Positions 15,710 to 54,935 of a stretch of 64,000 nt of DNA are shown here, piece after piece. This DNA is from an uncultured Actinomycetes bacterium (GTDB lineage: Bacteria; Actinomycetota; Thermoleophilia; Gaiellales; Gaiellaceae). The translations under genes and the position numbers were made by a program. Location: positions 8,663-72,662 of the forward strand of contig CAVTGM010000009.1 of assembly GCA_963734285.1 (NCBI GenBank), written 5' to 3'. Position 1 is the stretch's first letter. Every line of letters starts with the position of its first letter. A model generated the notes under the pieces. The model was not told where the DNA came from and did no database searches. It saw only the letters and a list, made by a program, of their open reading frames with translations.

Positions 15710-16267
15710 TCAGGCGTAGCCTTCGTCGAAGAAGCGGCCCTCGTGCGCGATTGCCTGCTCGCGTGTCAGGCCCTGCTCCGAATGCGGCGCCGCGCCGATC
15801 GCGTCAGCGAAGCGCGTGATCATCTCGAACCCCGCCTGCACGTCCGCCGCGTCACGCAGCGCCTGCTTCGACACGCCGGCCGCGAGCGCGCGCGCAGGGT
15901 CGAGCGTCGATAGGAAGGCCAGCGTCCCCCGCAGCCGTTCATCGATCGGTGCGGTCTCGAAGTCGTCGAGGATCGCGTCGACGAGCTCCGTGCTTCCGAA
16001 CGCATACGACGCGACCGCGCCGTGGGCCTCCGTTCAGAACGGGCATTGCCGCAGCTTGGAAGCGAAGGCGGCGAACAACTCGCGCTCGGCCTCGCTCCAC
16101 TCGGACGGCCCCTTCATCACCTCCTGGAAGTACGCGGAGATCGGCTCGCCGAAGAGCTCCGGTCGGTAGCGGAGCGCGAGCGAGATGTCGGACACGTAGC
16201 CGTCGCGCGCCCGTAGCTCCGCGATCCGCGCCGCCATCTCCAGCGAATGCGAGAGCTCAACCAGCAT
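15710..16267 (-). CDS. AhpD/carboxymuconolactone decarboxylase family protein with in-frame TGA (candidate selenocysteine) in a C-x-x-U-x-x-x-H motif
   Basis: ATG 16267 gives MLVELSHSLE...ERELFAAFASKLRQCPF, then TGA (16036-16034). The same frame continues TEAHGAVASYAFGSTELVDAILDDFETAPIDERLRGTLAFL...FFDEGYA to TGA 15712-15710. The offset 16036-15712 is 324, a multiple of 3. Confidence 0.6.
16006..16023 (-). promoter_or_regulatory. SECIS-like hairpin (7-bp stem, GGUC loop) starting 11 nt after the in-frame UGA
   Basis: The mRNA reads UGA-ACGGAGGCCC-ACGGCGC-GGUC-GCGUCGU. Pairs are A-U, C-G, G-C, G.U, C-G, G-C and C-G. Loop sequence and spacing resemble the E. coli fdhF SelB-binding minihelix (from memory). 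Confidence 0.5.
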
Positions 16268-16514
16268 CGATTGCCTCGTGTGCGCGTCGCCGCTTCTCGT
16301 CCGCGGCCGCGTACGCGACCGGCAGCACCGCCTCATACAGCGCATCCGCGTCGAGCCCGGCAACGTCGGCTTGTGTGATCTTCCACGCGCTGACGCGCAC
16401 CTTTTCGAGCAGCGGCGTCAGCTCGCCGACGGGGCCGGCGGCCTCGCCGACGCGGCGCCAGAGGTCGTCAGTCCGCGAGGAGCCGGCGGAGGACGAACTG
16501 GAGGATTCCGCCAT
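16257..16514 (-). other. Short ORF or remnant resembling the C-terminal half of a CMD-family paralogue
   Basis: Frame of ORF 16257..16610: GPVGELTPLLEKVRVSAWKITQADVAGLDADALYEAVLPVAYAA. The only ATG (16514) lies inside the aconitase 3' end, and the stop overlaps the next gene by 11 nt. Confidence 0.2.
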
Positions 16515-19122
16515 GCCGCAAGTATTCACGCTCGCGTGGCGTGTCGAGGCGTACCCGCGCGCGGAACTCCTTGTCGTCGGCGCGAACCGTGACGACATCG
16601 GCCTCCGCATTGTCGACGCCGAGGATGGAGAACTCCTCGCGTCCGGTGAGCCCGAGCGACTCGCGGTTCTCGCCCTCCATGAACTGCAACGGCAGCACGC
16701 CCATCATCAGGAGGTTCGAGCGGTGGATGCGCTCATACGACTCCGCGATTGCGGCGCGCACGCCGAGGAGGTTCGGCCCCTTGGCCGCCCAGTCGCGCGA
16801 GGAGCCGGTGCCGTACTCCTTCCCGGCGAGCACGATCGTCGGCACGCCTTCGGCTCGGTAGCGCATCGACGCGTCGTAGATGGTCATCTCTTCGCCGTCG
16901 GGAAGGTGCGCCGTCCACGTTCCCTCGCCGCCCGGCACGAGCTGGTTGCGCAGGCGGACGTTCGCGAACGTCCCGCGCATCATCACCTCGTGATTTCCTC
17001 TCCGCGATCCGTACGAGTTGAAGTCGCGGCGCTCGACGCCGTGCTCCGTCAGGTACGTGCCCGCGGGCGAGTCGGGCCGGATCGCGCCCGCGGGGGAGAT
17101 GTGGTCGGTCGTCACCGAGTCGCCGACCATGACGAGACAACGGGCACCGTGGACGTCCTCGACCGGGACGGGCTCGGCAGGCATTCCTTCGAAGTAGGGC
17201 GGGAGGCGGACGTAGGTCGAGTCCGGATCCCACGCGTACAGGTCGCCGTCGGGAGTGTCGAGCGCGTTCCAGCGCTCGTCGCCCGTGTAGACGTCCGCGT
17301 ACGTGCGCGAGAACATCTCGCCGTCGAGGGAACCGGCGATGGCCGCGTCGATCTCCGCGCGCGTCGGCCAGATATCGCGCAGGTAGACGTCTCCGGCGAT
17401 CGGCTCGGTGGTCAGGTCGATGTCCATGCGGCCCGCGAGCGCGTACGCGACGACGAGCGGCGGCGACATGAGGTAGTTCGCCTTCACCTCGCCGTGGATG
17501 CGCGCCTCGAAGTTGCGGTTGCCCGAGAGGACGGAGCAGACGACAAGGTCGCCGTCCGTCACCTCGGCGGAGATGTCCTCCGGGAGCGGCCCCGAGTTCC
17601 CGATGCACGTCGTGCATCCGTAGCCGACGGTGTTGAACCCGAGGTCGTCGAGGTACGTGTCGAGGCCCGAGCGCCGGAAATACTCGGTCACGACCTTCGA
17701 GCCCGGCGCGAGCGAGGACTTCACCCACGGTTTGCGCGTGAGCCCGCGCTCGACAGCCTTCTTCGCCAGTAGGCCCGCTGCGATCATCACCGACGGGTTC
17801 GACGTATTCGTGCACGACGTGATCGCGGCGATCACGACCGAGCCGTGCCGCAGCCGGCCGGTGGTCGGCTCGGGCGGAGCGGCGACCGCAGTTCCTCGGA
17901 CGCGGTCCGTGTCCGTCGCGCCGTCGAACGTCGGCGGGTCGCTCGCGGGGAACGAGTCCGCCATCTCCTTGTCGTACGTGCCGTTGTCGTAGTCGGCGCC
18001 GAAGGTGCCGAGCGACTCGATGAACGCGGACTTCGCGTTCGCGAGCGGCACGCGGTCCTGCGGACGACGCGGCCCTGCGATCGACGGCTCGACGTCGTCG
18101 AGGTCGAGCTCGACCACCTGCGAATACTCGGGGTGCTCGTGCGGCTCGTGCCAGAGCATGTTCTCCTTGCAGTACGCCTCGACGAGCTCGACGCGCCACT
18201 CAGGCCGTCCGGTCAGCCGCATGTACTCGAGCGTCACCTCGTCGACCGGGAAGAAGCCGCACGTCGCGCCGTACTCGGGGCTCATGTTCCCGAGCGTCGC
18301 GCGGTCGGCGAGCGCCAGCGACGGCACACCCGGGCCGAAGTACTCGACGAACTTCCCGACGACGCCGGTGCCTCGCAGGATCTGCGTTACCGTCAGTACG
18401 AGGTCGGTCGCCGTCGCGCCCTCGCGCAGCGCGCCGCTCAGCCGGAACCCGACGACCTGCGGGACGAGCATGGAGAGCGCCTCGCCGAGCATCGCGGCTT
18501 CCGCCTCGATGCCGCCGACGCCCCAGCCGAGGACGCCGAGCCCGTTCACCATCGTCGTGTGCGAGTCGGTCCCGACGAGCGTGTCGGGGAATGCGACTCC
18601 GTCGCGCGTCTCGACGACGCGCGCGAGGTATTCGAGGTTCACCTGATGGCAGATCCCGGTGTTCGGCGGGACGACCTCGAGCGTGTCGAACGCCTGCTGG
18701 CCCCACCGCAGGAATGCATAGCGCTCGCGGTTGCGCTCGAACTCGAGCTCGACGTTGCGCCCGATCGCGAGCCGCGAGGCGAACTCGTCCACCTGCACCG
18801 AGTGGTCGATGACGAGCTCGGCGGGGATGAGCGGGTTGATCTTCGCGGGGTCGCCGCCCTGGTCGCGCATCGCGTCGCGCATGGCCGCGAGGTCGACGAT
18901 CGCCGGGACGCCGGTGAAGTCCTGAAGGAGGACGCGGGCGGGCATGAACGAGATCTCGTGCGCGGGCTCCGCGGCGGCCGACCAGCCGAGGATGGGCTCG
19001 GTGTCGCCGCCGCTGCGCATGACGTTCTCGAGCAGGATCCGCAGCGTGTACGGCAGGCGCGCGGCGCTCGCGTCAAGGCGGTGGATCTCGTAGGTCCGAT
19101 CGCCGACGCTGAGTGTTGCCAT
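16468..19122 (-). CDS. acnA: Aconitate hydratase A
   Basis: About 885 aa, with [49 protein letters not shown] and NRNFEARIH. Likely start is MATLSVGD (19122); the longer ORF starts at 19149. Confidence 0.95.
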
Positions 19123-19176
19123 ACCCCGATTCAAGCAGAGGGCGGCCACCCGCCGGGCAGCCGCCCTCCGGTGGTG

Positions 19177-23421: not shown

Positions 23422-23922
23422 CTAAGGCTGCTCATCGACGTCCCCGGGAGGCGTGAGGTCGTCGCACTCGACGAGGCGCGCGTCGAGCGAGCGTGCGCCA
23501 TCGTCGGGAACGAGTGACCATGCCGCACACGCAAGCAGGACGGGATGGAGGCGGACGCCGCCGTACGTGCATGCGTACACGTCGCCGCCGTCGTACCGCC
23601 ACGCGGCGACGACGCGGTCGATCGCGCGCGGATCGAGCGCGGGCCCGTCGGCAAGCACGACAACCGCTGCTTCCGCGTCGTCGGGCAGTGCGGCGAGCCC
23701 GCAGCGCAGGGATGCGCCGGGCCCGCGCTCCCAGTCCGGGCACGCGACGACGCGCGCGTCCGTCTCGAGAGCGTGTGCTCCGCTGACGACGACGACGTCG
23801 TCGACGACGCTCGCACGGAGCGCGGCGAGCACGCGCGGCAAGAGCTCCTGCTGCTTCGGCGGCGACGTGCCGTAGCGCGACGACGCGCCGGCGGCGAGGA
23901 CGACCGCGTGGATCAGCTGCAA
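23422..23922 (-). CDS. Nucleotidyltransferase family protein, MocA-like molybdenum cofactor cytidylyltransferase
   Basis: AVVLAAGASSRYG P-loop-like start and VVLADGP. It is adjacent to the molybdoenzyme operon. Confidence 0.65.
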   Translation of the reverse strand: MQLIHAVVLAAGASSRYGTSPPKQQELLPRVLAALRASVVDDVVVVSGAHALETDARVVACPDWERGPGASLRCGLAALPDDAEAAVVVLADGPALDPRAIDRVVAAWRYDGGDVYACTYGGVRLHPVLLACAAWSLVPDDGARSLDARLVECDDLTPPGDVDEQP

Positions 23923-24455
23923 CCCGCCAACGCGGCCCAGCGGGCCTCGACGTTGGCGACGTAGCGCATGCTGATCGGGCCGAGGACTTGGTGGTCGGAG
24001 TCGATCCTTGTGGGGCCCGCGTTATACGCGGCGAGCGCGAGATCCGTTCGGTTGTACCGGTCGAGAAGGAGCCGCAGGTAGCGCGCCCCGGCGAGCACGT
24101 TCGTCGCCGGATCGTTCACGTCGAGCTTGAGCGACGCGCCGGTCGCGGGCAGCACCTGGAGCAGGCCGCGCGCGTCCTTCACCGACACGGCGTTCGGAAC
24201 GAAGCGCGACTCGACCTGCGCGACCGCGACGAGCATCGAGAGCTGGAAGCCCGTGTCGTTCGCAGCGGTCGAGAACGCCGGGCGGAACTGCGACGGGATC
24301 GGGCACCGGTTCGAGGCGAGCCGGCCGGTGGTCGGCAGCGCCGGCAGATGTGGCACGAGCAACGTCGAGCCGCGGTCGCTGCGCGCGCCGGCAGCTACTG
24401 CGACCGAGCAGGCCGCCGCAGCCACACCGAGCAGGATGAAGAGCCTCGTCCGCAT
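23913..24455 (-). CDS. Lytic transglycosylase domain protein (SLT), secreted
   Basis: Signal peptide MRTRLFILLGVAAAACS; AVAQVESRF (catalytic Glu), GLLQV and AYNAGP motifs. Confidence 0.75.
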   Translation of the reverse strand: MRTRLFILLGVAAAACSVAVAAGARSDRGSTLLVPHLPALPTTGRLASNRCPIPSQFRPAFSTAANDTGFQLSMLVAVAQVESRFVPNAVSVKDARGLLQVLPATGASLKLDVNDPATNVLAGARYLRLLLDRYNRTDLALAAYNAGPTRIDSDHQVLGPISMRYVANVEARWAALAGCS

Positions 24456-24483
24456 AGTGGGTCGCGGACCTTATCGCAGGGAG

Positions 24484-25302
24484 CTAGAGCTGTGCGACGG
24501 CGCGCCCGATGAGCGCCCGGGCGACGTCCACTTTCCACGCCGTACGCGGGAGTGGGGTCGCCGACTCGAGATCCCCGGGCCCGGCCAGGAGCCAGGGAAT
24601 CGGGGCGACGCCGGCGAGCGCGATCCGCGTCCCGCCGCCGAGCCGGGCCGCTGCCACGCCGACCTGCGGGAAGGCCCAGCGCTTCCGGTCCATCGCCTTC
24701 AGGTACACGCTCGCCTCGACCGGAGGAAGCTCGAGCTCGAGGATGAGCTCGCCCGGCTCGAGCGTCGTCCCGCGGCGATCGGCCTCGTCCGGGAGCCGGT
24801 ACAGCTCGGCCAGGCCGAGCTCGCGGCGATTCGTGTGCACCCGCGCGTCGAGCGCAAGCAGGGCCGCCGCCACGTCGGAGGGATGCGCGGAGGCGCAGAA
24901 GTCGTTCGCGAAGATCGCGTGCTCGCGGTGCTCACCGTCCGCGGCGTGGCAGCGGTCGCCGCCGTGCAGCCGACACGGGACCTTGAGCCGCCAGTACCAG
25001 CAGCGCGTCGACTGGAGGAGGTTGCCGCCGATCGAGCCCATGTTCCGGAGTTGCGGCGACGCGGCCAGGCGGCACGCCTCGCGCAAGGCGACCGGTACGG
25101 CGTCGCTCGACTCGAGCGCCGCGAGCGTCGTTCCGGCACCGATGCGATTGCCATGGATACCCGTGGGGACGATGCCGCGCACGTCGACGAGCGTGTCCGC
25201 GTGCAGGATTCCGTCGCGCAGCAGCGGCACCACCTCCGTGCCGCCGTGGACGAAGAGCCCACCGTCGAGCTCGGCGAGGCTAGACGGCCGCAGGAGCTCC
25301 AC
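24484..25302 (-). CDS. Xanthine dehydrogenase/CO dehydrogenase family, FAD-binding subunit (CoxM-like)
   Basis: 272 aa with LFVHGGTEVVPLL and RNMGSIGGNL motifs. Confidence 0.85.
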   Translation of the reverse strand: MELLRPSSLAELDGGLFVHGGTEVVPLLRDGILHADTLVDVRGIVPTGIHGNRIGAGTTLAALESSDAVPVALREACRLAASPQLRNMGSIGGNLLQSTRCWYWRLKVPCRLHGGDRCHAADGEHREHAIFANDFCASAHPSDVAAALLALDARVHTNRRELGLAELYRLPDEADRRGTTLEPGELILELELPPVEASVYLKAMDRKRWAFPQVGVAAARLGGGTRIALAGVAPIPWLLAGPGDLESATPLPRTAWKVDVARALIGRAVAQL

Positions 25303-27535
25303 GCCGCTCCTTCTTCGCAGCTTCGCGCAGCGCGCGCAGCATCTCCTCGCGCGACACGGGCAGCTCGTGCACGTCGGCGCCGGTTGCGTCGCGGATCGCG
25401 TTCGCGATCGCCGCGGCGATCGGCACGATCGGCGGCTCGCCGAGGCCCTTCGAGCCGAGGTTCGTCAGGTGCTCGTCCGGCTTGTCGATGAACTCGCACA
25501 CGATCTCGGGAACGTCGGCGATCGTCGGCATCCGATACGCGTCCAGCGACGTCGTCAGGACGCGCCCGGTCTCCGCGTCGAGCAACCGCATCTCGGAGAG
25601 CGTGTGCCCGATCCCCTGGATGATTCCGCCCTCGACCTGGCTCTCGGCTCCGAGCGGGTTGATGATGCGGCCGACGTCGTGGATCGCGGCGACGCGCTCG
25701 ACGCGGACCTCGCCGGTCTCGACGTCCACCGCGGCCTCGACGACGTGCACGCCGAAGGTGAGCACGCTCATGCCCGTTGGGTTCGGGCCGCGTGCGCCCT
25801 TGCCGAGGATCTGTGCGCTGCCGAGCATGTGGAGGAACTCCTCGAGCGCGACGGAGAGATTCCCGTCGTGCGAGATGATGCGTCCGTCGCGGATGTCGAG
25901 CACACGCTCCTCGAGGTCGTAGCGCTGCGCGGCGATCTCGATGATCTGTCGCTTCGCGTCGGCGGCGGCGGCTCGCACGGCCGGGCCGACCGACGGCGTC
26001 GTCGACGAGCCGGCGGACAACGTCGCGTACGGACCGCGTGACGTGTCGCCGAGCGCGACGTCCACGCGATCGAGTGCGACGCCGAGCTCCTCGGCGGCGA
26101 TCTGCGCCATTGCCGTCCGCGTTCCCGTCCCGATGTCCTGCATCGCCGTGACGACGGCGATGCGTCCGTCGGAGCCGACACGCGTCCACGCGTACGACGG
26201 CGGTCCTCCGCCGCCGTACCAGATCTGGCTCGCCATTCCGACGCCGCGCTTCCACGTCGCGTCGGAGCGCGCCCGCACGTCGTGCCTGCGATCCCAGTGC
26301 TTCTGCGCGAGCGCGTAGCACTCGGCGAGATTCTTCGACGAGTACGGCGTGCCGTCGTTCGACGTCGCGTAGTTCTTGCGGCGCAGCTCCAGCGGATCCA
26401 TGTCGAGCTTGCCTGCGAGCTCGTCGATGATGCACTCGAGCCCGAAGGTGCCCTCGACGAAGCCGGGCGCGCGGAACGCCTTCATCGGCGGCGTGTTGAT
26501 CTTGGCCGTGTGCCGCGTCGTGCGAACGTTGTCGCACGCGTACAGCATCTTCATCGGGCCTTCCGTCGACGCCGACCATCCGCCCCAGCCGAGCGCGTTC
26601 ACATAGTCGCCGCCGAGTGCCGTGATGGTGCCGTCGCTCCGTGCGGCAACGGTGAGTCGCTGGATCGTTGCATTGCGATTGCCGGCCGCGACGTTCTCCT
26701 CGCGCCGCGTGAGCGCGCACCGCACCGGGCGCCCCGTCTTCTTCGCCAGCACCGCGGCGGCGAACGTGAACTCGCCGGCCGAGTTCTTCGAGCCAAAGCC
26801 TCCGCCCATGTACTCGCACACGACGCGCACGTCGTCGGCGGGAATGCCGAGCTCGCGCGCGACCTCGCTGCGCACGCCCCACACGTATTGCGTCGACGTG
26901 TAGACGTCGAGCCGGTCGCCGACCCACTCGCACACGGACTGGTGCGTCTCCATCGAGTTGTGGAGGACGACCTGCGTCCGATAGGTGCCCTCGACGACCA
27001 CGTCGGCCTCGGCGACCGCGCGGTCGAAATCTCCGCGCTCGTAGTGCTCCGCCTCACCGTGCACGAGGCCCCGCTCGACGGCTTCCTCCGGATCGAGGAC
27101 GGCCTCGAGCAGCTCCCACTCGACCGCGACCGCCTCGAGTGCAGCATGCGCCTGGCCGAAGGTCTCGGCGGCGATCGCAGCCACCGGCGCGCCCGCATAC
27201 CCGGCCTCTGTCTCGAGCCCGGGCGCCTCGCCGGGCCCGACCGCCGCCCGCACGCCCGGGAGCGCGAGCGCCGCACTGAAGTCGATGCTCTTCACGCGCG
27301 CGTGCGCGTGAGGAGAGCGGAGGATCGCCGCCTGGAGCATCCCGGGCAGCCGGATGTCGGCCGTGAAGCGCGCCTCGCCCCGCACCCGCTCGAGCGCCGT
27401 CTTGCGGATGGCCGGACGGCCGACGACGTCGCCGGGCCCCTCCGGCCACTGCTGCAGCGGATCCTCCTCGACGACGAGCCAGACCTCCTCGAAGTTCCCT
27501 TCGACTTCCTTCTCGGTCCGGATCAGTCGCGCCAA
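25280..27535 (-). CDS. Xanthine dehydrogenase/aldehyde oxidase family, molybdopterin-binding large subunit (CoxL-like)
   Basis: Real part of ORF 25280..27787 from about LIRTEKEVEG: GEARFTADIRLPGML, GGGFGSK, and the C-terminal GLGEPPIVPIAAAIANAI. The start (TTG 27535) is approximate. Confidence 0.9.
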   Translation of the reverse strand: MARLIRTEKEVEGNFEEVWLVVEEDPLQQWPEGPGDVVGRPAIRKTALERVRGEARFTADIRLPGMLQAAILRSPHAHARVKSIDFSAALALPGVRAAVGPGEAPGLETEAGYAGAPVAAIAAETFGQAHAALEAVAVEWELLEAVLDPEEAVERGLVHGEAEHYERGDFDRAVAEADVVVEGTYRTQVVLHNSMETHQSVCEWVGDRLDVYTSTQYVWGVRSEVARELGIPADDVRVVCEYMGGGFGSKNSAGEFTFAAAVLAKKTGRPVRCALTRREENVAAGNRNATIQRLTVAARSDGTITALGGDYVNALGWGGWSASTEGPMKMLYACDNVRTTRHTAKINTPPMKAFRAPGFVEGTFGLECIIDELAGKLDMDPLELRRKNYATSNDGTPYSSKNLAECYALAQKHWDRRHDVRARSDATWKRGVGMASQIWYGGGGPPSYAWTRVGSDGRIAVVTAMQDIGTGTRTAMAQIAAEELGVALDRVDVALGDTSRGPYATLSAGSSTTPSVGPAVRAAAADAKRQIIEIAAQRYDLEERVLDIRDGRIISHDGNLSVALEEFLHMLGSAQILGKGARGPNPTGMSVLTFGVHVVEAAVDVETGEVRVERVAAIHDVGRIINPLGAESQVEGGIIQGIGHTLSEMRLLDAETGRVLTTSLDAYRMPTIADVPEIVCEFIDKPDEHLTNLGSKGLGEPPIVPIAAAIANAIRDATGADVHELPVSREEMLRALREAAKKERRGAPAAV

Positions 27536-27963
27536 TGCAGAATCGCCTCCTCGATCTTGGGGTACGTGCCGCAGCGGCAGATATTCCCGGCCATCGCGTG
27601 GCGTATCTCGTCCGAGCTCGGCTCGGGGTTCCCGGCGACGAGCGCCGCTGCGGATACGACCTGGCCCGGCGTGCAGAAGCCGCACTGCACCGCGTCGGCG
27701 CGGACGAATGCGTCGACGAGCTGATGCTCGCGCAGCCCCTCGATCGTCGTCACGTCGCCGTTGACGGTGTGCGCGAGCGTGATGCACGAAAGCACCGGAG
27801 TGCCGTCAACCATGACCGTGCACGCGCCGCAGTGGCCTTCGTTGCACGCGATCTTCGTCCCGGTCAATCCGAGCCGCTCGCGCAGGACGTTTGCGAGGCT
27901 CGTTCCGATCGGCGCGTCAAGCGCGTGCTCGTCGCCGTTCACGACCAGCCGCAGTTCAGGCAT
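27523..27963 (-). CDS. (2Fe-2S)-binding small subunit (CoxS-like)
   Basis: CNEGHCGACTV, CGFCTPG and NICRCGTY cysteine clusters. Confidence 0.9.
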   Translation of the reverse strand: MPELRLVVNGDEHALDAPIGTSLANVLRERLGLTGTKIACNEGHCGACTVMVDGTPVLSCITLAHTVNGDVTTIEGLREHQLVDAFVRADAVQCGFCTPGQVVSAAALVAGNPEPSSDEIRHAMAGNICRCGTYPKIEEAILHWRD

Positions 27964-29104
27964 TCGGGGTCACCGCCAGGACGTCGGCGAGGTGGATGAG
28001 ACGGGACGTCGTGCGCGCGACGGCGCGCACCTCCGCCTCGTCCTCGGCGTCGGGCAGCGTGCGCCAGAGCTCCTGTGCAACGAGCAGCAGCTCCCGGATC
28101 TGCTCGAGGTCGCGGCCGGCGCCGTTGCGATCGTTCGTGGCGTTGAGCGCGAGGCCGAGTGCACCGAACGTGTCCTGCTGCCGGATGAAGATGAGTGGCA
28201 GCGCCATCGAGAGGTACTGGTGGATGCGCGCGAGCGGCATCGGCTGCGCGAAGACGTCCGTGCCCTGCGGACGCGATGGCTCGAGCGGGGGCTCGCCGTC
28301 GGCGATGCGGTTCGCGTTGCCCGAGAGCATGTCCGCGACCTGCGGCTCGGTCAGGCCGGCGGTGCGCGCGGTGCGCAACGAGAGCAGGAGTGAGTTCGGC
28401 TGGCCACCGTACGGATAGTCGGAGGCGTAGACGACCTGCTCCGGCGGCACGAGGTGGAAGAACTCGAGCAGGTCGATCGCGCTCCAGACCGAGGTGTCGA
28501 AGAAGACTCCCGCCTTGCCCGCGAAGTGCGACGCGAGTCCGGAGAGGTCGGCGATCCCAGCGTGCGCGATGATCAGCTGCGCGTTCGGGTACGCGTCGAC
28601 GAGGCGGTGCAGGCTGTCGGCGATCGGCGGTAGGCCGCGGCCGCCGTGGATGAGGATCGGCACGCGCCGCTCCGCGGCGATCGCGAACACGGGCGCGAGC
28701 CGGTCGTCGTCGAGTAGGAACTTCTGCGCCCGCGGGTGCAGCTTGATGCCGCGCGCGCCGAGGTCGAGGCACCGCTCCGCCTCTCCGATCGGATCCTCGG
28801 CGAGGTCGAGGCGCACGAAGGGGATCATCCGGCCCTGCGACCGCTCGGCGAACGCGAGCGTCCGGTCGTTCCCGGCGCGGAACCCGGGGTGCCGGTCGGG
28901 CTCGTCCAGGCAGAAGAAGAAGCATCGCGAGATCCCGTACCGGTCGAGCGTCTCCTCGAGCTGCTCGAACCGGCCGACGCTGCCGTCGATGTCGGTGCCG
29001 AGGTGGGTGTGCGCGTCGAAGACGTCCACACCGGCAGGCATTTCGGCCCGCAGCTCGACCTCGAATGCGGCGAAGAGCTCGCGGGCGCGCTCCAGCGGCT
29101 CCAT
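27956..29104 (-). CDS. Amidohydrolase family (TIM-barrel metal-dependent hydrolase)
   Basis: VFDAHTHLG metal-binding start, GIKLHP, ILIHGG, IIAHAG and YASDYPY. Likely start is MEPLERAREL (29104); the longest ORF starts at 29128. Confidence 0.75.
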   Translation of the reverse strand: MEPLERARELFAAFEVELRAEMPAGVDVFDAHTHLGTDIDGSVGRFEQLEETLDRYGISRCFFFCLDEPDRHPGFRAGNDRTLAFAERSQGRMIPFVRLDLAEDPIGEAERCLDLGARGIKLHPRAQKFLLDDDRLAPVFAIAAERRVPILIHGGRGLPPIADSLHRLVDAYPNAQLIIAHAGIADLSGLASHFAGKAGVFFDTSVWSAIDLLEFFHLVPPEQVVYASDYPYGGQPNSLLLSLRTARTAGLTEPQVADMLSGNANRIADGEPPLEPSRPQGTDVFAQPMPLARIHQYLSMALPLIFIRQQDTFGALGLALNATNDRNGAGRDLEQIRELLLVAQELWRTLPDAEDEAEVRAVARTTSRLIHLADVLAVTPNA

Positions 29105-49688: not shown

Positions 49689-50360
49689 ATGGGCTTGCAC
49701 ATCGGTGACACAGCACCTGATTTCGAGGCCGAGACGACCGAGGGTCGCATCGGCTTCCACGACTGGATCGGCGACTCGTGGGCCGTGCTCTTCTCGCACC
49801 CGAAGGACTTCACGCCCGTGTGCACGACCGAGCTCGGGTACATGGCGAAGATCAAGCCGGAGTTCGACCGGCGCGGCGTCAAGGTGATCGGCCTCTCGGT
49901 CGACCCGGTCGACCGCCACGGCGACTGGGCGAAGGACATCGAGGAGACGCAGGGCCACGCGCCCAACTACCCGATCATCAGCGACGCGGACTTCAACGTC
50001 TCGAAGCTGTACGGGATGCTCCCCGCGAGCACGTCCGGCGACCCGCTCCAGCGGACGCCCGCCGACAACCAGACGGTGCGCAACGTCTTCGTCATCGGTC
50101 CCGACAAGAAGGTGAAGCTCATCCTCGTCTATCCGATGACGACCGGCCGGAACTTCGACGAGGTGCTGCGCGTCATCGACTCGCTGCAGCTGACGGCGAA
50201 GCACAAGGTGGCGACGCCGGCGCAGTGGCAGCAGGGCGACGACGTCATCATCGCCGGCTCGGTCTCGAACGAGGACGCGAAGGAGATCTTCGGCGAGTGG
50301 GAAGAGCCGAAGCCCTACATCCGCATCGTGCCTCAGCCGGGAGTGAAGACTCCCGCGTAG
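49689..50360 (+). CDS. 1-Cys peroxiredoxin (Prx6 type)
   Basis: [20 protein letters not shown] is the peroxidatic Cys motif; also [15 protein letters not shown]. 223 aa. Confidence 0.9.
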
Positions 50361-51337
50361 GCGTTGAGCGCCGGCTGTCCGCCCAGGTGGGCGTACAGCA
50401 CCCGTGAGCCCGGCTCGATGCGGCCGTCGCGGACGAGGTCGATGAGCGCAGCCATCGACTTCCCCTCGTAGACGGGATCCGTGAGGACGCCCTCGAGCCG
50501 GGCGCACAACCGAATCGCCTCGATCGTCTCCTCATCGGGGATGCCGTACGTTCCGGCGTGCCACTCATCCAGGAGGACGACGTCGAGCTCGCGGTCGAGG
50601 CCGATCGCGTCGGCCGTGCTCGTTGCGATGCGCGTGATCTGGTCGCGCGTCTGCTCGACCTTCGCGGAGCCGTCGATGCCGAGGATGCTCCGCTCTGCGT
50701 CCTGGAGCGCGAAGCCGGCGACCATGCCGGCCTGCGTCGAACCGGTGACCGAGCAGACGACGACGGTGTCGAAGAAGACGCCGAGCTCCGCCTCTTGCGC
50801 CGCGACCTCCTCGGCCCAGCGCGCGAACCCGAGCCCGCCGAGCGGATGGTCGAACGCGCCGGCCGGGATCGCATACGGCTTGCCGCCTGCGGCGACGACG
50901 GAGTCGAGCGCGTCCTGCCAGCTCGGGCGGAACGCGATGTCGAAGCCCGCGTCGACGATGCGCACGTCCGCGCCCATGATCCGCGAGAGCAGGATGTTCC
51001 CGACCGTGTCGTAGACGGGGTCCGGCCATTCGACCCAGTGCTCCTGCACGAGCACGCATTTCAGTCCGAGCTGCGCGGCGACAGCCGCGACCTGGCGCGT
51101 GTGATTCGACTGCACGCCGCCGATCGACACGAGCGTGTCGCATCCCTGCGCGAGCGCGTCCGCAGCGAGGTACTCGAGCTTGCGCGTCTTGTTCCCGCCG
51201 TAGGCGAGTCCGGAGTTGCAGTCCTCGCGCTTCGCCCAGATCTCGACGCGGCCGCCGAGGTGCTCGCTCAGCCGTTCGAGCGGATGGACGGGCGACGGAC
51301 CGAAGAGCAGGTCGACGCGCGGGAAGTCGGCGAGCAC
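50333..51337 (-). CDS. 1-aminocyclopropane-1-carboxylate deaminase / D-cysteine desulfhydrase family (PLP enzyme)
   Basis: From GTG 51337: [22 protein letters not shown] (PLP lysine), [14 protein letters not shown] and VTGSTQAGM. 334 aa. Confidence 0.85.
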
Positions 51338-52036
51338 TAGCCGGGAACGTCGCCGTTCGTCGAGCCCATGCGCTCGATGACGACCTGCGGAATGCGTGCG
51401 TACGGTGAGAGCCGGAGCGCCATGCGCACGATCTCGGCGCAGTCCTCCGGGCGGATCATCTCGCCGGGCTCGATCCCGGACCACTGAGCCATCGGCGTGT
51501 CGACGAATCCGGGGCAGAGCGCGATCGCGCGCACGCCGTCGGCGTCGAGCTCGGCGTTGAGCGACCGCGTGAGCGAGATCACCGCCGCCTTCGTCGCGCC
51601 GTAGACGGAGAGACCGGGCGTCGGCATCGTGCCGGCGATCGACGCGAGATTGACGATCCAGCCGCGCGTTTCGCGCAGCAGCGGGATCGCCGCCTGCGTG
51701 ACGAGGAAGAGCCCGCGCAGGTTCACGCCGAGCTGCAGGTCGAGGTGCTTGACCGGCAGAGTCCTCCACGCGACCGCCGATGCCGACGCCCGCGGAGTTG
51801 ACGAGCACGTCGAGCCGGCCGAAGCGCTCGCGGTGCTCGGCGACGAGGCGCGCGCAGTCGTCGGCGTCGGAGACGTCGGCCGCGACGGCGACCGCGCCGA
51901 TCTCGGCCGCAGCGGCCTCGACCTTCTCCGCGCGACGAGACGCGAGCGTCAGGTCGAAGCCCTCCTCGCGGAGCATGCGCGCGATCGCGAGCCCGATGCC
52001 CGACGATCCACCCGTGATGAGCGCTGCCCTCTCCAC
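51337..52036 (-). pseudogene. Short-chain dehydrogenase/reductase, frame broken near 51759
   Basis: [15 protein letters not shown] and NSAGVG read in the frame of ORF 50333..52084. The continuation [22 protein letters not shown]...YGATKAA lies in ORF 51337..51726. Confidence 0.65.
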
Positions 52037-52055
52037 CGCGCGTACAGTAAACCGC

Positions 52056-53055
52056 GTGGAGGCACCCGCGCTCACGAGCCTCACCGTCGGCGGCGGCTGC
52101 GCCGCGAAGTACTCGGCGGCGCGTCTCGAGGAGCTGCTCCGCGGATTCGTCCCCGCCGAGGCCGAGAACCTCCTCGTCGGACTCGATCCCGCCGACGACG
52201 CGGCCGTCTACAAGCTCGACGACGAGCGTGCGCTCGTCTTCACCGTCGACTTCTTCCCGCCGCTCGTGGACGACCCGTCCGTCTTCGGGCGCATCGCGGC
52301 GACGAACGCGCTGAACGACGTGTTCGCGATGGGCGGCATACCGCTCATCGCATTGTCGATCGCCGCGTTCCCGGAGGAGCTGCCGAACGACGTTCCCGCG
52401 CGCGTGTTCGCGGCCGCCGACGAGACGGTGCGCGCGGCCGGCGCCGTGCTCGCCGGGGGACACACGATTCGCGACGCCGAGCCGAAGTACGGGCTCGCCG
52501 TCGTCGGCACCGTCCACCCCGACGGCATCTGGCCGAAGTCCGGCGCGCGGCCGGGCGACGCGCTCTTCCTGACGAAGCCGCTCGGCACCGGCCTCGTGCT
52601 CGCCGCGAAGATCGACGCCGCCGAGGCGATCGAATGGATGACGACGCTCAACGCGGCCGCCGCCGACGCGCTACGCCCGTTCGAGCCGAACGCGGTCACC
52701 GACGTCACCGGCTTCGGGCTCTTCGGACACGCGCACGAGATGGCGTCGCGCAGCGGTGTGCGCATCACGCTCGACGCGGGCGCAATGCCGGCGATGGCCG
52801 GCGCGCTCGAAGCCGCCGAAGCCGGCGTGCGCACGGGCGGCGACCGCCGCAACCGCGAGTACGCGCCCGTCGAGGCCGACGGCGTCGCCGAGGCAGTCCT
52901 CGCGCTCGGCTACGACGCGCAGACCGCGGGCGGCCTGCTCATCTCGCTTCCCGCCGACAAGGCGCTCTCGCTCGAGAGCGCGTTCCGCGCGCGCGACCTC
53001 TTCATCACGCGCGTCGGCACGCGTCGAGGAAGGCGCCGGCGTCTCAGTCGGGTAG
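52056..53055 (+). CDS. selD: Selenide, water dikinase (selenophosphate synthetase), Cys-type; 3' end frame-shifted near 53021 as assembled
   Basis: From GTG 52056: [23 protein letters not shown] (GxGC-x-x-K active loop, TGC codon), [30 protein letters not shown] and GGHTI. The natural end [10 protein letters not shown]-stop (53053-53055) lies in ORF 52756..53055. Confidence 0.8.
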
Positions 53056-53466
53056 CTCGCGCTTGCGCGCGAGGATGGACTTGCGCTTGTCGACGAGCTC
53101 GGTCTCGAGGCGCTTCAGCTCCTCGATGCGCTTGCGGACGAGGCCGAGCTGCGTGTCGACGTGCGGAAGCGCGGCGTCGAGTAGCCGCAGCCGTTCGGCG
53201 TCGGAGTCGGTCGCGCGGAACTGCTTGCGGATGGCGGCGCGCGCCTCCTCCGCCTCGACGAGCTGCTTCAGCTCCTCGAGCGAGATGTTCAACAGCTCGC
53301 GCAGGCGCCGCAGCTCGCTCAGCCGCTCGACGTCGGTGTCGTCGTACGCGCGGTGCTCGCCCTTGCGGCGCTCCGGCGGCCCCGGAAGCAGGCCGATCTC
53401 CTCGTAGTAGCGGATCGTGCGCGGCGTGAGGCCCGTCCGCTCCGCGACTTCGCCGATCCTGATCAT
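53044..53466 (-). CDS. MerR family transcriptional regulator
   Basis: From MIRIGEVAERTGLTPRTIRYYEEIGLL, followed by a coiled-coil C-terminus. Confidence 0.8.
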   Translation of the reverse strand: MIRIGEVAERTGLTPRTIRYYEEIGLLPGPPERRKGEHRAYDDTDVERLSELRRLRELLNISLEELKQLVEAEEARAAIRKQFRATDSDAERLRLLDAALPHVDTQLGLVRKRIEELKRLETELVDKRKSILARKRELPD

Positions 53467-54935
53467 GCGCGCCTGAAGATCTCGCCGAGCGACGATGTGC
53501 GCCGACATGCGCGGGCCGCATGAGCGAGACGGCGGCGCCGAGCAGCGACACGCCGGTCAGCACCCACAACGCCATGTGCATGTTCGAGATGAACGGATCG
53601 AGCTGCTTCGTCGAGAGCCCGGACGTGACGCCGGAGAAGATCTTGAAGAGCACCGTCGTCGGGATGGCCGAGGTGACGACCGCCATGACGAACGCGATCG
53701 AGATCACCGCGCCCGTGTTCTGCAGCATCACGCGGGCGCCGGCGGCGATGCCGCGCCGGTGCACGGGGACGACGCCCATCATCGCCGAGGTGTTCGGGCT
53801 GTTGAACATGCCCGAGCCGATGCCGACGAGCAGGAGCCACAGCGCGCTCCACACGTACGCGGTGTGCGCCTGCAGCGTCGTCATGCCGGCGAGGCCTGCG
53901 GCCGAGACGAGCATCCCGAGCGCAGCGAGGCCGCGCGAGCCGTGCCGGTCGGCCGCGATGCCGGCCAGCGGTGAGGCGACGAGCATCCCGACCGCCAGCG
54001 GCGCAAGCTCGAGGCCGGCGACGATCGGCGACTTGCCCTGCGGCCCCTGGAAGTAGAAGACGAACAGGAACATCAGCGCGAAGCGCGAGAGCCCGTTGAT
54101 GAAGGCGGCGCCGGACGCGGCCGCGAACAGCTTGTTGCTGAAGAGGGAGAGGTCGAGCATCGGCGCGCGCACGTGCCGCTCGATGACGACGAAGAGCGGC
54201 AGGAGGACGATCGCGGCCGCAAAGCCGGCGATGACGAGCCAGTTGTTCCACCCCGTCAGGCCGCCCTTCGAGAGTGCGAGCACGAGCCCGGTGAGCCCGA
54301 CGACGAACGTCGACGTCCCGAGCGAGGTCGAGGCCGCGTTCGGAGTCGCGCCCGGAGATCTCGTGCAGCACGAGGTATGCCCACGCGGAGCCGATGAGGC
54401 CGAGCGGCACGTTGAACCAGAACACCCACGGCCAGCGGATCGCGACGAGCGCGCCGCCGAGCACCGGCCCGATGACGAGGCCGACAGCGGCGACCATGGT
54501 GTTCGTCCCCATCGCGAGGCCGAGCTCCTCCTTCGGGAATGCGTCGGTGACGAGCGCGGCGGCGTTCGCGAACAGGAACGCCCCGCCGACGCCCTGCAGG
54601 ACGCGCCAGAGGATGAGCTGCGTGCCGCTGCCGGCGAAGCCGGCGCCGAGCGATGCGGCCGAGAAGACGAGGAAGCCGAGCACGTATGCGTGCTTGCGGC
54701 CGAAGAGGTCGGAGAGCCGTCCCGCCGTCAGCACGAGGACGGTGGAGACGATCATGTAGACGAGGATGACCCAGACGAGCTGCAGCAGCGTCGTGTGCAG
54801 GCTGCGCTCGAGGTCCGGGAGCGCAATGATGAGGGTGCCCGAGTTGACGGTTGCGAGCAGCATCCCCAGGCTGGTGCACGAGAGCACCCACCATTTGAAG
54901 TGACGACTGTGTCTGCGACTCCGAAGAAACTTCAT
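53463..54935 (-). pseudogene. MFS transporter, DHA2 family, at least two frame breaks (~54347 and ~53497)
   Basis: The N-half is in ORF 53463..54935 (WWVLSCTSLGMLLATVNSGTLIIALP, GRLSDLFGRK). The C-half is in ORF 52910..54283 (LALSKGGLTGWNNW...). A stop is reachable only by returning to the first frame (…GEIFRRA, TGA overlapping the MerR ATG). Confidence 0.7.

Follow-up and report, generated by a model that had tools for sequence, protein, structure and literature searches.

When a stop codon falls on the second cysteine of a redox motif and the reading frame continues undisturbed beyond it, is the gene broken, terminated early or recoded? The minus strand of a 64,000-nucleotide stretch of contig CAVTGM010000009.1, from an uncultured Gaiellaceae bacterium (the whole stretch is called the window here), poses this question, because a gene for an AhpD-like protein of the carboxymuconolactone decarboxylase (CMD) superfamily is interrupted there by one in-frame TGA. 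A preliminary description of the window had put this gene forward as a candidate selenoprotein gene. Judged by comparison with its relatives, it is very probably a genuine selenocysteine (Sec)-encoding gene for an AhpD-like protein, and what we observe in its favor comprises the in-frame TGA itself, the conservation of that codon, its alignment with cysteine in homologues, a covarying hairpin downstream, membership of the protein family and a selD gene in the same window.

The reading frame and its internal TGA

The gene and its active site are laid out as follows:

15710 to 16267, minus strand: gene for the AhpD-like (CMD-family) predicted selenoprotein, 185 codons including Sec78, plus a terminal TGA
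16034 to 16036, minus strand: in-frame TGA, the predicted Sec codon at residue 78, replacing the second Cys of CxxC (from comparison with relatives, Cys homologues and PDB chains)
16022 to 16081, minus strand: active-site motif E63 ... C75-P-F-U78-T-E-A-H82 with 12/3/4 spacing (from alignment A1, of 15 sequences)

Translation from the ATG at 16267 meets a single internal stop, the TGA at 16036-16034, after which 107 open codons lead to the TGA at 15712-15710, an offset of 324 nt (MLVELSH...LRQCPF*TEAHGAVASYAF...EGYA*); the preliminary description had given the same positions and counts, and every one proved correct on recheck. The active-site stretch reads ...LRQ-C75-P-F-[TGA78]-T-E-A-H82..., with the interrupting TGA as the second Cys of E-x11-C-x-x-C-x3-H. 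A scan of the whole window for other in-frame TGA read-through candidates left the codon at 16036 standing alone, the three further matches being antisense frames or gene boundaries.

Conservation of the TGA among relatives

A protein search returned 70 relatives, and a scan that took one genome from each GTDB species, with an alignment of close relatives (A2) as the query, found 541; the best 80 loci, almost all in metagenome-assembled genomes (MAGs) of Gaiellaceae, Gaiellales or Thermoleophilia, were analysed. Across these 80 loci, TGA occupies the predicted Sec codon in 86 of 86 gene copies, whose proteins are 46–97% identical to that of the window. The preliminary description had reasoned that orthologues ending at the TGA would speak against recoding. 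They do not end there: the frame stays open for 107–118 codons beyond it in 76 of 85 copies and for 107–135 codons in 81 of 85.

In alignment A1, R62, E63, C75 and H82 are invariant, and the stop lies in the second-Cys column of C-x-x-C-x3-H. Cysteine itself occupies the residue-78 position in proteins P0011, P0016, P0020 and P0023 and in the PDB chains 2PFX and 6K40, and the codon opposite the TGA in Cys homologues is TGT in locus L083 and TGC in locus L084. The alignments thus pair the TGA, as expected, with TGC or TGT codons and, where solved AhpD-like structures are aligned, with the later of the two CxxC cysteines.

These data bear on the possibility that the TGA arose in sequencing or assembly, or by a mutation that inactivated the gene, so that the gene is a pseudogene and the hairpin a coincidence. 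Such a reading gains from the many apparent frame breaks in other genes of the window and from two irregular relatives: the MAG at L008 has a TAG two codons past the TGA (around 3231), and metagenome contig L081 (1332-1913, P0005) has AGA (Arg) for the TGA, with the hairpin intact. Both irregularities are either sequencing errors or recent inactivations. Errors or decay, however, would not recur at one codon, and here the TGA sits at one codon in every independently assembled copy, down to 46% identity, with coding sequence conserved on both sides. An independent MAG (L001, 'uncultured Gaiellales bacterium'), with 97% protein identity and, over 6.5 kb, 88% DNA identity to the window, has a near-identical TGA and hairpin, which rules out assembly error. 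TGA is also an ordinary stop, ending 8 of the window's 20 long open reading frames (ORFs) and 25 of the 85 AhpD-like genes themselves; taken with the 86 conserved copies, this excludes assembly error, a pseudogene and a reassigned code, and we put the chance of an erroneous or decayed gene at practically nil.

Gene callers do annotate fragments of such genes, with P0006, P0017, P0018, P0021, P0025 and P0028 ending exactly at ...QCPF and P0002 beginning just past the TGA site (MEAHGAVASYAF...). If the UGA did terminate translation, the product would be a 77-residue N-terminal peptide, the C-terminal half would be untranslated or made on its own, and the hairpin would serve another purpose, for instance pausing or mRNA stability. 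Besides the fragments, this reading can draw on the fact that selD is the only Sec machinery seen in the window. Termination would nevertheless separate the two parts of the catalytic C-x-x-C...H motif; ACG, CTC or GCG follows the TGA, so no start codon is conserved there; the halves before and after the TGA align together, as one domain, with solved structures that are single chains; and the Cys homologues are single polypeptides. We allow termination a very slim chance.

A conserved hairpin after the TGA

Recoding of UGA in bacteria calls for a Sec insertion sequence (SECIS), described as a stem-loop that directly follows the UGA and whose small apical loop contains a G (PMC1088965). The candidate element of the window has both properties:

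16006 to 16023, minus strand: upper helix of the predicted SECIS, 7 bp (ACGGCGC/GCGUCGU) with a GGUC apical loop and GU at nucleotides 22-23 from the U of UGA (from folding and comparison)
15997 to 16032, minus strand: extended predicted SECIS hairpin, a lower stem of nucleotides 5-8/37-40 and 10-11/34-35 plus the upper helix (from the minimum-energy fold)

The minimum-energy fold (RNAfold) has a 10-nt spacer, the 7-bp stem and the GGUC loop within a stem over nucleotides 5-40 after the U of UGA, and so returns the hairpin that had been described from the letters alone, ACGGCGC/GGUC/GCGUCGU (16023-16006). Its stability is modest: z is −1.4 to −1.8 for segments of 46–61 nt, and −2.6 when only the 18-nt core is folded. 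For the SECIS of Escherichia coli fdhF, established by experiment, z = −1.3, and we therefore dropped the folding significance of a single sequence as evidence, because a genuine SECIS scores no better. Since the fold is unremarkable alone and that of fdhF likewise, thermodynamics does not decide the matter and the evidence is comparative.

The 19-nt core CACGGCGCGGTCGCGTCGT, which encodes H-G-A-V-A-S, is nearly invariant among 82 distinct sequences. We computed synonymous-codon entropy among the sequences with the majority amino acid over a 46-codon stretch. Codons +5 to +9 have 0, 0.51, 0.51, 0 and 0.10 bits, compared with 0.65–1.79 bits in the 22 other multi-codon columns (Mann-Whitney p = 3e-4). 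Codons +6 and +7 vary only as GCG to GCA (10 of 87 copies) and GTC to GTT (10 of 87), two changes that are coupled in every sequence listed and that together turn the loop from GGUC to AGUU with the central GU unchanged. The loop is GGUC in 75 of the 82 distinct sequences and AGUU in the other 7, and the central GU is invariant.

Pairing is likewise maintained, with 89.5% of cells paired as against 32–53% when the 3' partners are slid by 1–3 columns, and none of 500 shuffles reached the observed covariation score or percentage paired. Changes on both sides occur at pair 8-37 (A-U in 31 sequences, G-C in 31), at pair 17-28 (G.U in 70, C-G in 5) and at loop positions 21/24 (G..C in 75, A..U in 7), so the conserved hairpin and covarying stem that the preliminary description looked for in orthologues are there. 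The switch from G.U to C-G at 17-28 alters two amino acids (Gly to Ala and Ser to Ala) and preserves the pair. In six paralogous copies GUCGU has become ACCGU (3' arm GCG-A-CCGU), and the helix is kept with a bulged A on its 3' side. These patterns amount to RNA-level constraint on the hairpin beyond protein conservation, through few independent events. Hairpin loss was followed in two Cys homologues only, and in P0016 (TGC), which encodes H-R-A-V-A-V, there is no such hairpin, while in P0011 (TGT) it has decayed. The fold alone, with its modest z, is not beyond chance; it is the comparison that lifts the TGA and the hairpin above it, through the TGA in all 86 copies, the frozen sites and the covariation.

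Selenium genes and the weighing of the Sec reading

One gene of selenium metabolism lies in the window:

52020 to 53110, plus strand: selD (selenide, water dikinase), Cys form (GGGCAAK), from TIGR00476 (332 bits against a cut-off of 125) and a motif scan

Its score confirms the selD that had been noticed there beforehand. The selD reading frame runs about 300 nt beyond the end of homology without a stop, overlapping an opposite-strand MerR-family gene. Nearby, one ORF fuses a pyridoxal phosphate (PLP)-dependent enzyme with a short-chain-dehydrogenase-like segment, and a transporter-like gene is split over two frames (both named by eye). The regions concerned, 51780-53429 (+), 50333-52084 (-) and 52910-54935 (-), fit an earlier remark on indel errors in this assembly.

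ARAGORN and Rfam (at gathering and E-value thresholds) gave only tRNA-Arg in the 64-kb window, with no tRNA-Sec there, and none was found in 60 related loci; motif scans aimed at SelA (PLP-lysine) and SelB (P-loop) found nothing in the window or the 80 loci. Also in the window, at 23422-27969 on the minus strand, is a molybdenum-hydroxylase cluster with molybdenum cofactor (MoCo)-binding large, FAD (flavin adenine dinucleotide)-binding and 2Fe-2S subunits and a MobA-like nucleotidyltransferase. The molybdenum hydroxylases of some organisms use a selenium cofactor that depends on selD.

Could another tRNA read the UGA? A near-cognate or suppressor tRNA might insert Trp, Cys, Arg or Gly, or the code might be reassigned. 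JGI gene calls do render the codon as W in P0001, P0003, P0007 and P0008, as if genetic code 4 applied (for P0001 the DNA was verified to have TGA), and selB and tRNA-Sec were not seen in the window or the locus flanks. Set against this, TGA is a frequent genuine stop in the genome and in the AhpD-like genes, the position is that of a redox-active Cys whose function would be kept only by Cys or Sec, a conserved fdhF-like SECIS at the canonical distance would be needless for simple suppression, and selD is present. Read-through without Sec retains a slim chance in our judgment.

Several points weigh against a Sec-encoding gene and temper our confidence in it. The folding energy of the single sequence is not significant, and the hairpin is without the bulged U of the fdhF minihelix. 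Conservation of the hairpin is in part protein-level, because it sits in the codons of the conserved peptide HGAVAS, and most covarying cells may trace to few evolutionary events. Neither the 64-kb window nor the flanking DNA of the 80 loci contains selA, selB or tRNA-Sec, a result that is uninformative on the whole genome. The selD gene alone is ambiguous and no proof of Sec decoding, because the molybdenum-hydroxylase cluster of the window could also use selenium. Finally, the case for selenium incorporation at this UGA is one made by comparison.

Protein family and proposed function

With Cys substituted for U, residues 41-87 match the Pfam CMD model (PF02627) at 27.9 bits, above its cut-off of 23. 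The window protein scores 60.0 bits against TIGR01926 ('peroxidase-related enzyme'), under the cut-off of 81.8 that P0003 (84.2 bits), P0011 (85.6) and P0007 (103.7) pass, which makes it part of a divergent sister subgroup and, by the NCBI rule, no member of TIGR01926. Its scores are 34.5 bits for NF041238 (AhpD_rel_CFYUT; cut-off 175), over the C-terminal part of the model only, and 11.5 bits for the YciW-related (seleno)protein model NF053654 (cut-off 310).

In a phmmer search of the PDB, residues 11-165 match 2PFX (5.9e-12), 6K40 (2e-11) and 2PRR (1e-9), as well as 3C1L and 2OYO, and the alignments place 'rqCPF[U]teaHGA' of the window opposite 'nkCFYClvaHGA' and 'nrCVYCavsHGA'. Homology to these solved structures settles the predicted fold family of the window protein, the AhpD-like all-helical one. 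The chain 6K40 is DR1765 of Deinococcus radiodurans; deleting its gene makes the mutant sensitive to H2O2, an effect that depends on CxxC (PMC8945050). The proton relay of Mycobacterium tuberculosis AhpD consists of Glu118, Cys130, His132, Cys133 and His137, and that of PA0269 includes Glu36, Cys48, Cys51 and His55 (PMC3141380). In this numbering, the match to the spacing of Cys130, Cys133 and His137 that had been pointed out for the window is borne out, with E63, C75, U78 and H82 at the same intervals.

We infer Sec insertion, SelB binding, enzymatic activity and the existence of a partner from these comparisons, and they can be combined into a mechanism. The enzyme would be a thiol/selenol oxidoreductase of AhpD type, from the 'peroxidase-related enzyme' branch (COG2128/TIGR01926) of the CMD superfamily, in which the nucleophilic second Cys of the E...C-x-x-C...H proton-relay site has been swapped for Sec. 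The UGA at 16036-16034 would be recoded during translation: by analogy with E. coli fdhF, the mRNA hairpin downstream would be bound by SelB, which would bring its Sec-tRNA(Sec) to the ribosome stalled at the UGA, and the selD product encoded in the same window would supply selenophosphate. The resulting C75-P-F-U78 center could then reduce a peroxiredoxin-type partner, or peroxides directly, a role demonstrated in M. tuberculosis AhpD and proposed for DR1765. Given the homology to DR1765 and the AhpD proton-relay spacing, the product is most likely a selenol/thiol oxidoreductase in peroxide defence, either the reductant of a peroxiredoxin partner or itself a peroxidase.

A 1-Cys peroxiredoxin gene (AhpC-TSA and 1-cysPrx_C domains) lies at 49689-50360 on the plus strand, 33 kb off and beside the selD region. 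Its product is a conceivable redox partner, although the two genes are unlinked.

Genomic neighborhood and paralogues

Two genes precede the predicted selenoprotein gene on its strand:

16257 to 16514, minus strand: small upstream ORF (some 85 aa, with an uncertain start codon), conserved as a partner gene or domain (from tblastn in related loci)
16468 to 19149, minus strand: aconitase-like gene directly upstream (named by eye from its translation and from a Pfam hit, PF00694, on relative P0017)

The TGA stop of the small ORF overlaps the ATG of the predicted selenoprotein gene (ATGCTGGTTGA; pattern ATGnnnnTTGA), and of 15 orthologous loci compared, 14 keep this junction; the overlap is therefore not a frameshift artefact. 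By tblastn, the small ORF lies between the aconitase-like and the AhpD-like genes in 31 of 35 loci (L001-L035), and throughout these 35 the C-terminus of an aconitase-like protein is encoded upstream, as in the window. In some other relatives one protein combines the small ORF with the AhpD-like domain: the small-ORF part stands at the N-terminus in P0007 and at the C-terminus in P0031, P0033 and P0051. No Pfam or NCBIfam model matches the small ORF; a faint TIGR04029 signal of 18 bits comes from the N-terminal region of P0007.

Loci L036-L080 hold paralogues of the P0003/P0008 type, which passes the TIGR01926 cut-off. These are 46–52% identical to the window protein and have the same TGA and SECIS, some in tandem pairs. 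Tandem AhpD-like pairs occur in L032, L036, L037, L039, L040 and L042, where both genes of a pair have a TGA of their own followed by the shared SECIS core. Loci L021 and L067 lie on one contig (CAWCCJ010000018.1), so a single genome has at least two unlinked TGA copies.

A few copies come from bins assigned to other phyla, namely L018 (Acidobacteriota), L049, L064 and L074 (Gemmatimonadetes/Gemmatimonadales) and L065 (Chloroflexota). The first is probably a misbinned Gaiellales contig, because its protein is 83% identical to that of the window and the aconitase synteny is kept; the other four may reflect genuine occurrence outside Actinomycetota or horizontal transfer.

Known family, new members and annotation

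This kind of selenoprotein is already known. AhpD-like (COG2128) CxxU selenoproteins were published in 2005 by Zhang, Fomenko and Gladyshev from the Sargasso Sea (27 sequences; PMC1088965), ranked as the fourth most abundant selenoprotein family in the Global Ocean Sampling (GOS) survey of 2008 (299 sequences; PMC2398784), are present in sequenced genomes (PMC1794560) and are listed in a 2026 review under TIGR01926, PF02627, NF041238 and NF041047 (PMC13188914). The statement in the preliminary description that surveys had predicted such proteins was accurate. In the library searched, nothing relevant was found on Sec or selenoproteins in Gaiellales or Thermoleophilia. What is new is the membership: a divergent Gaiellales subgroup that falls below the TIGR01926 cut-off and is linked to an aconitase gene and a small ORF.

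Annotation stands to gain from this. In the few records that we checked, the public gene calls for the family are wrong, being split at the UGA, truncated or given a W at the codon, and the sole NCBI-sourced match (P0051, ABUS54_10080) is a truncated 'hypothetical protein'; the 541 GTDB relatives may share such mis-annotation. The motif C-P-F-U-T-[EG]-[AS]-H together with the core CACGGCGCGGUCGCGUCGU could serve as the seed of an annotation model. More broadly, the gene adds a well-supported predicted selenoprotein for Gaiellales and Thermoleophilia and points to selenium use in aerobic soil actinobacteria, while our knowledge of Sec decoding and of AhpD chemistry is unchanged by it.

A bolder idea, which we regard as doubtful, is that the Gaiellales, abundant and largely uncultured soil Actinomycetota, keep their Sec apparatus chiefly for lineage-specific AhpD-like selenoproteins, with an undescribed subfamily and a two-gene module among them. 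If this were true, the set of the lineage would be made up of one to three TIGR01926-type paralogues, some in tandem, and the orthologue that neighbors the aconitase gene and the small ORF, all with a common, near-frozen fdhF-like SECIS; the module could possibly protect Fe-S enzymes such as aconitase; and the lineage would depart from the view that the Sec trait is maintained by FdhA or SelD selenoproteins.

Comparison with known systems

The closest experimental reference for the hairpin is the fdhF SECIS of E. coli. The 46-nt sequence that we used agrees with the fdhF gene of 5413 E. coli records to ≥99% identity. Its fold has a GGUC loop, at nucleotides 22-25, and an upper helix from 11 nt after the UGA; the preliminary description had given this loop and distance correctly. 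In both elements the hairpin follows right after the UGA and ends in a GGUC apical loop with an exposed G-U. The loop of the window element lies one nucleotide nearer (nucleotides 21-24 with GU at 22-23, against 22-25 with GU at 23-24), and the distance from the UGA to its upper helix is 10 rather than 11 nt. The stem in the window is a continuous 7 bp including one G.U, with no equivalent of the bulged U in the fdhF minihelix.

Among enzymes, DR1765 (6K40), 2PFX, 2PRR, 2OYO and 3C1L share full-domain homology with the window protein (E = 2e-11 to 6e-12) and an aligned R-E-L...C-x-x-C-x-x-x-H-G-A motif. They differ in having Cys in place of the predicted Sec, their identity is about 25–30%, and none has a defined physiological partner. 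M. tuberculosis AhpD and PA0269 have a proton-relay spacing identical to that of E63/C75/U78/H82. The former is too far for a sequence search to find, its His132 is replaced here by Phe77, and no ahpC adjoins the predicted selenoprotein gene. NF041238 and NF053654 are AhpD-related and have a C-x-x-U-T motif resembling the C-P-F-U-T of the window, but the matches are weak and partial and the window protein is no member of either.

The nearest counterparts are the surveyed AhpD-like selenoproteins, which belong to the same superfamily, have Sec at the second Cys (CxxU) and have a SECIS directly downstream with a G in its small loop; the same-lineage paralogues P0003 and P0007 and the Cys homologue P0011 pass TIGR01926. 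Compared with these, the window protein has a shortened loop after the helix 'FLSTL' and an insertion near its C-terminus, and its gene belongs to a Gaiellales-specific orthologous group that follows an aconitase gene and a small ORF.

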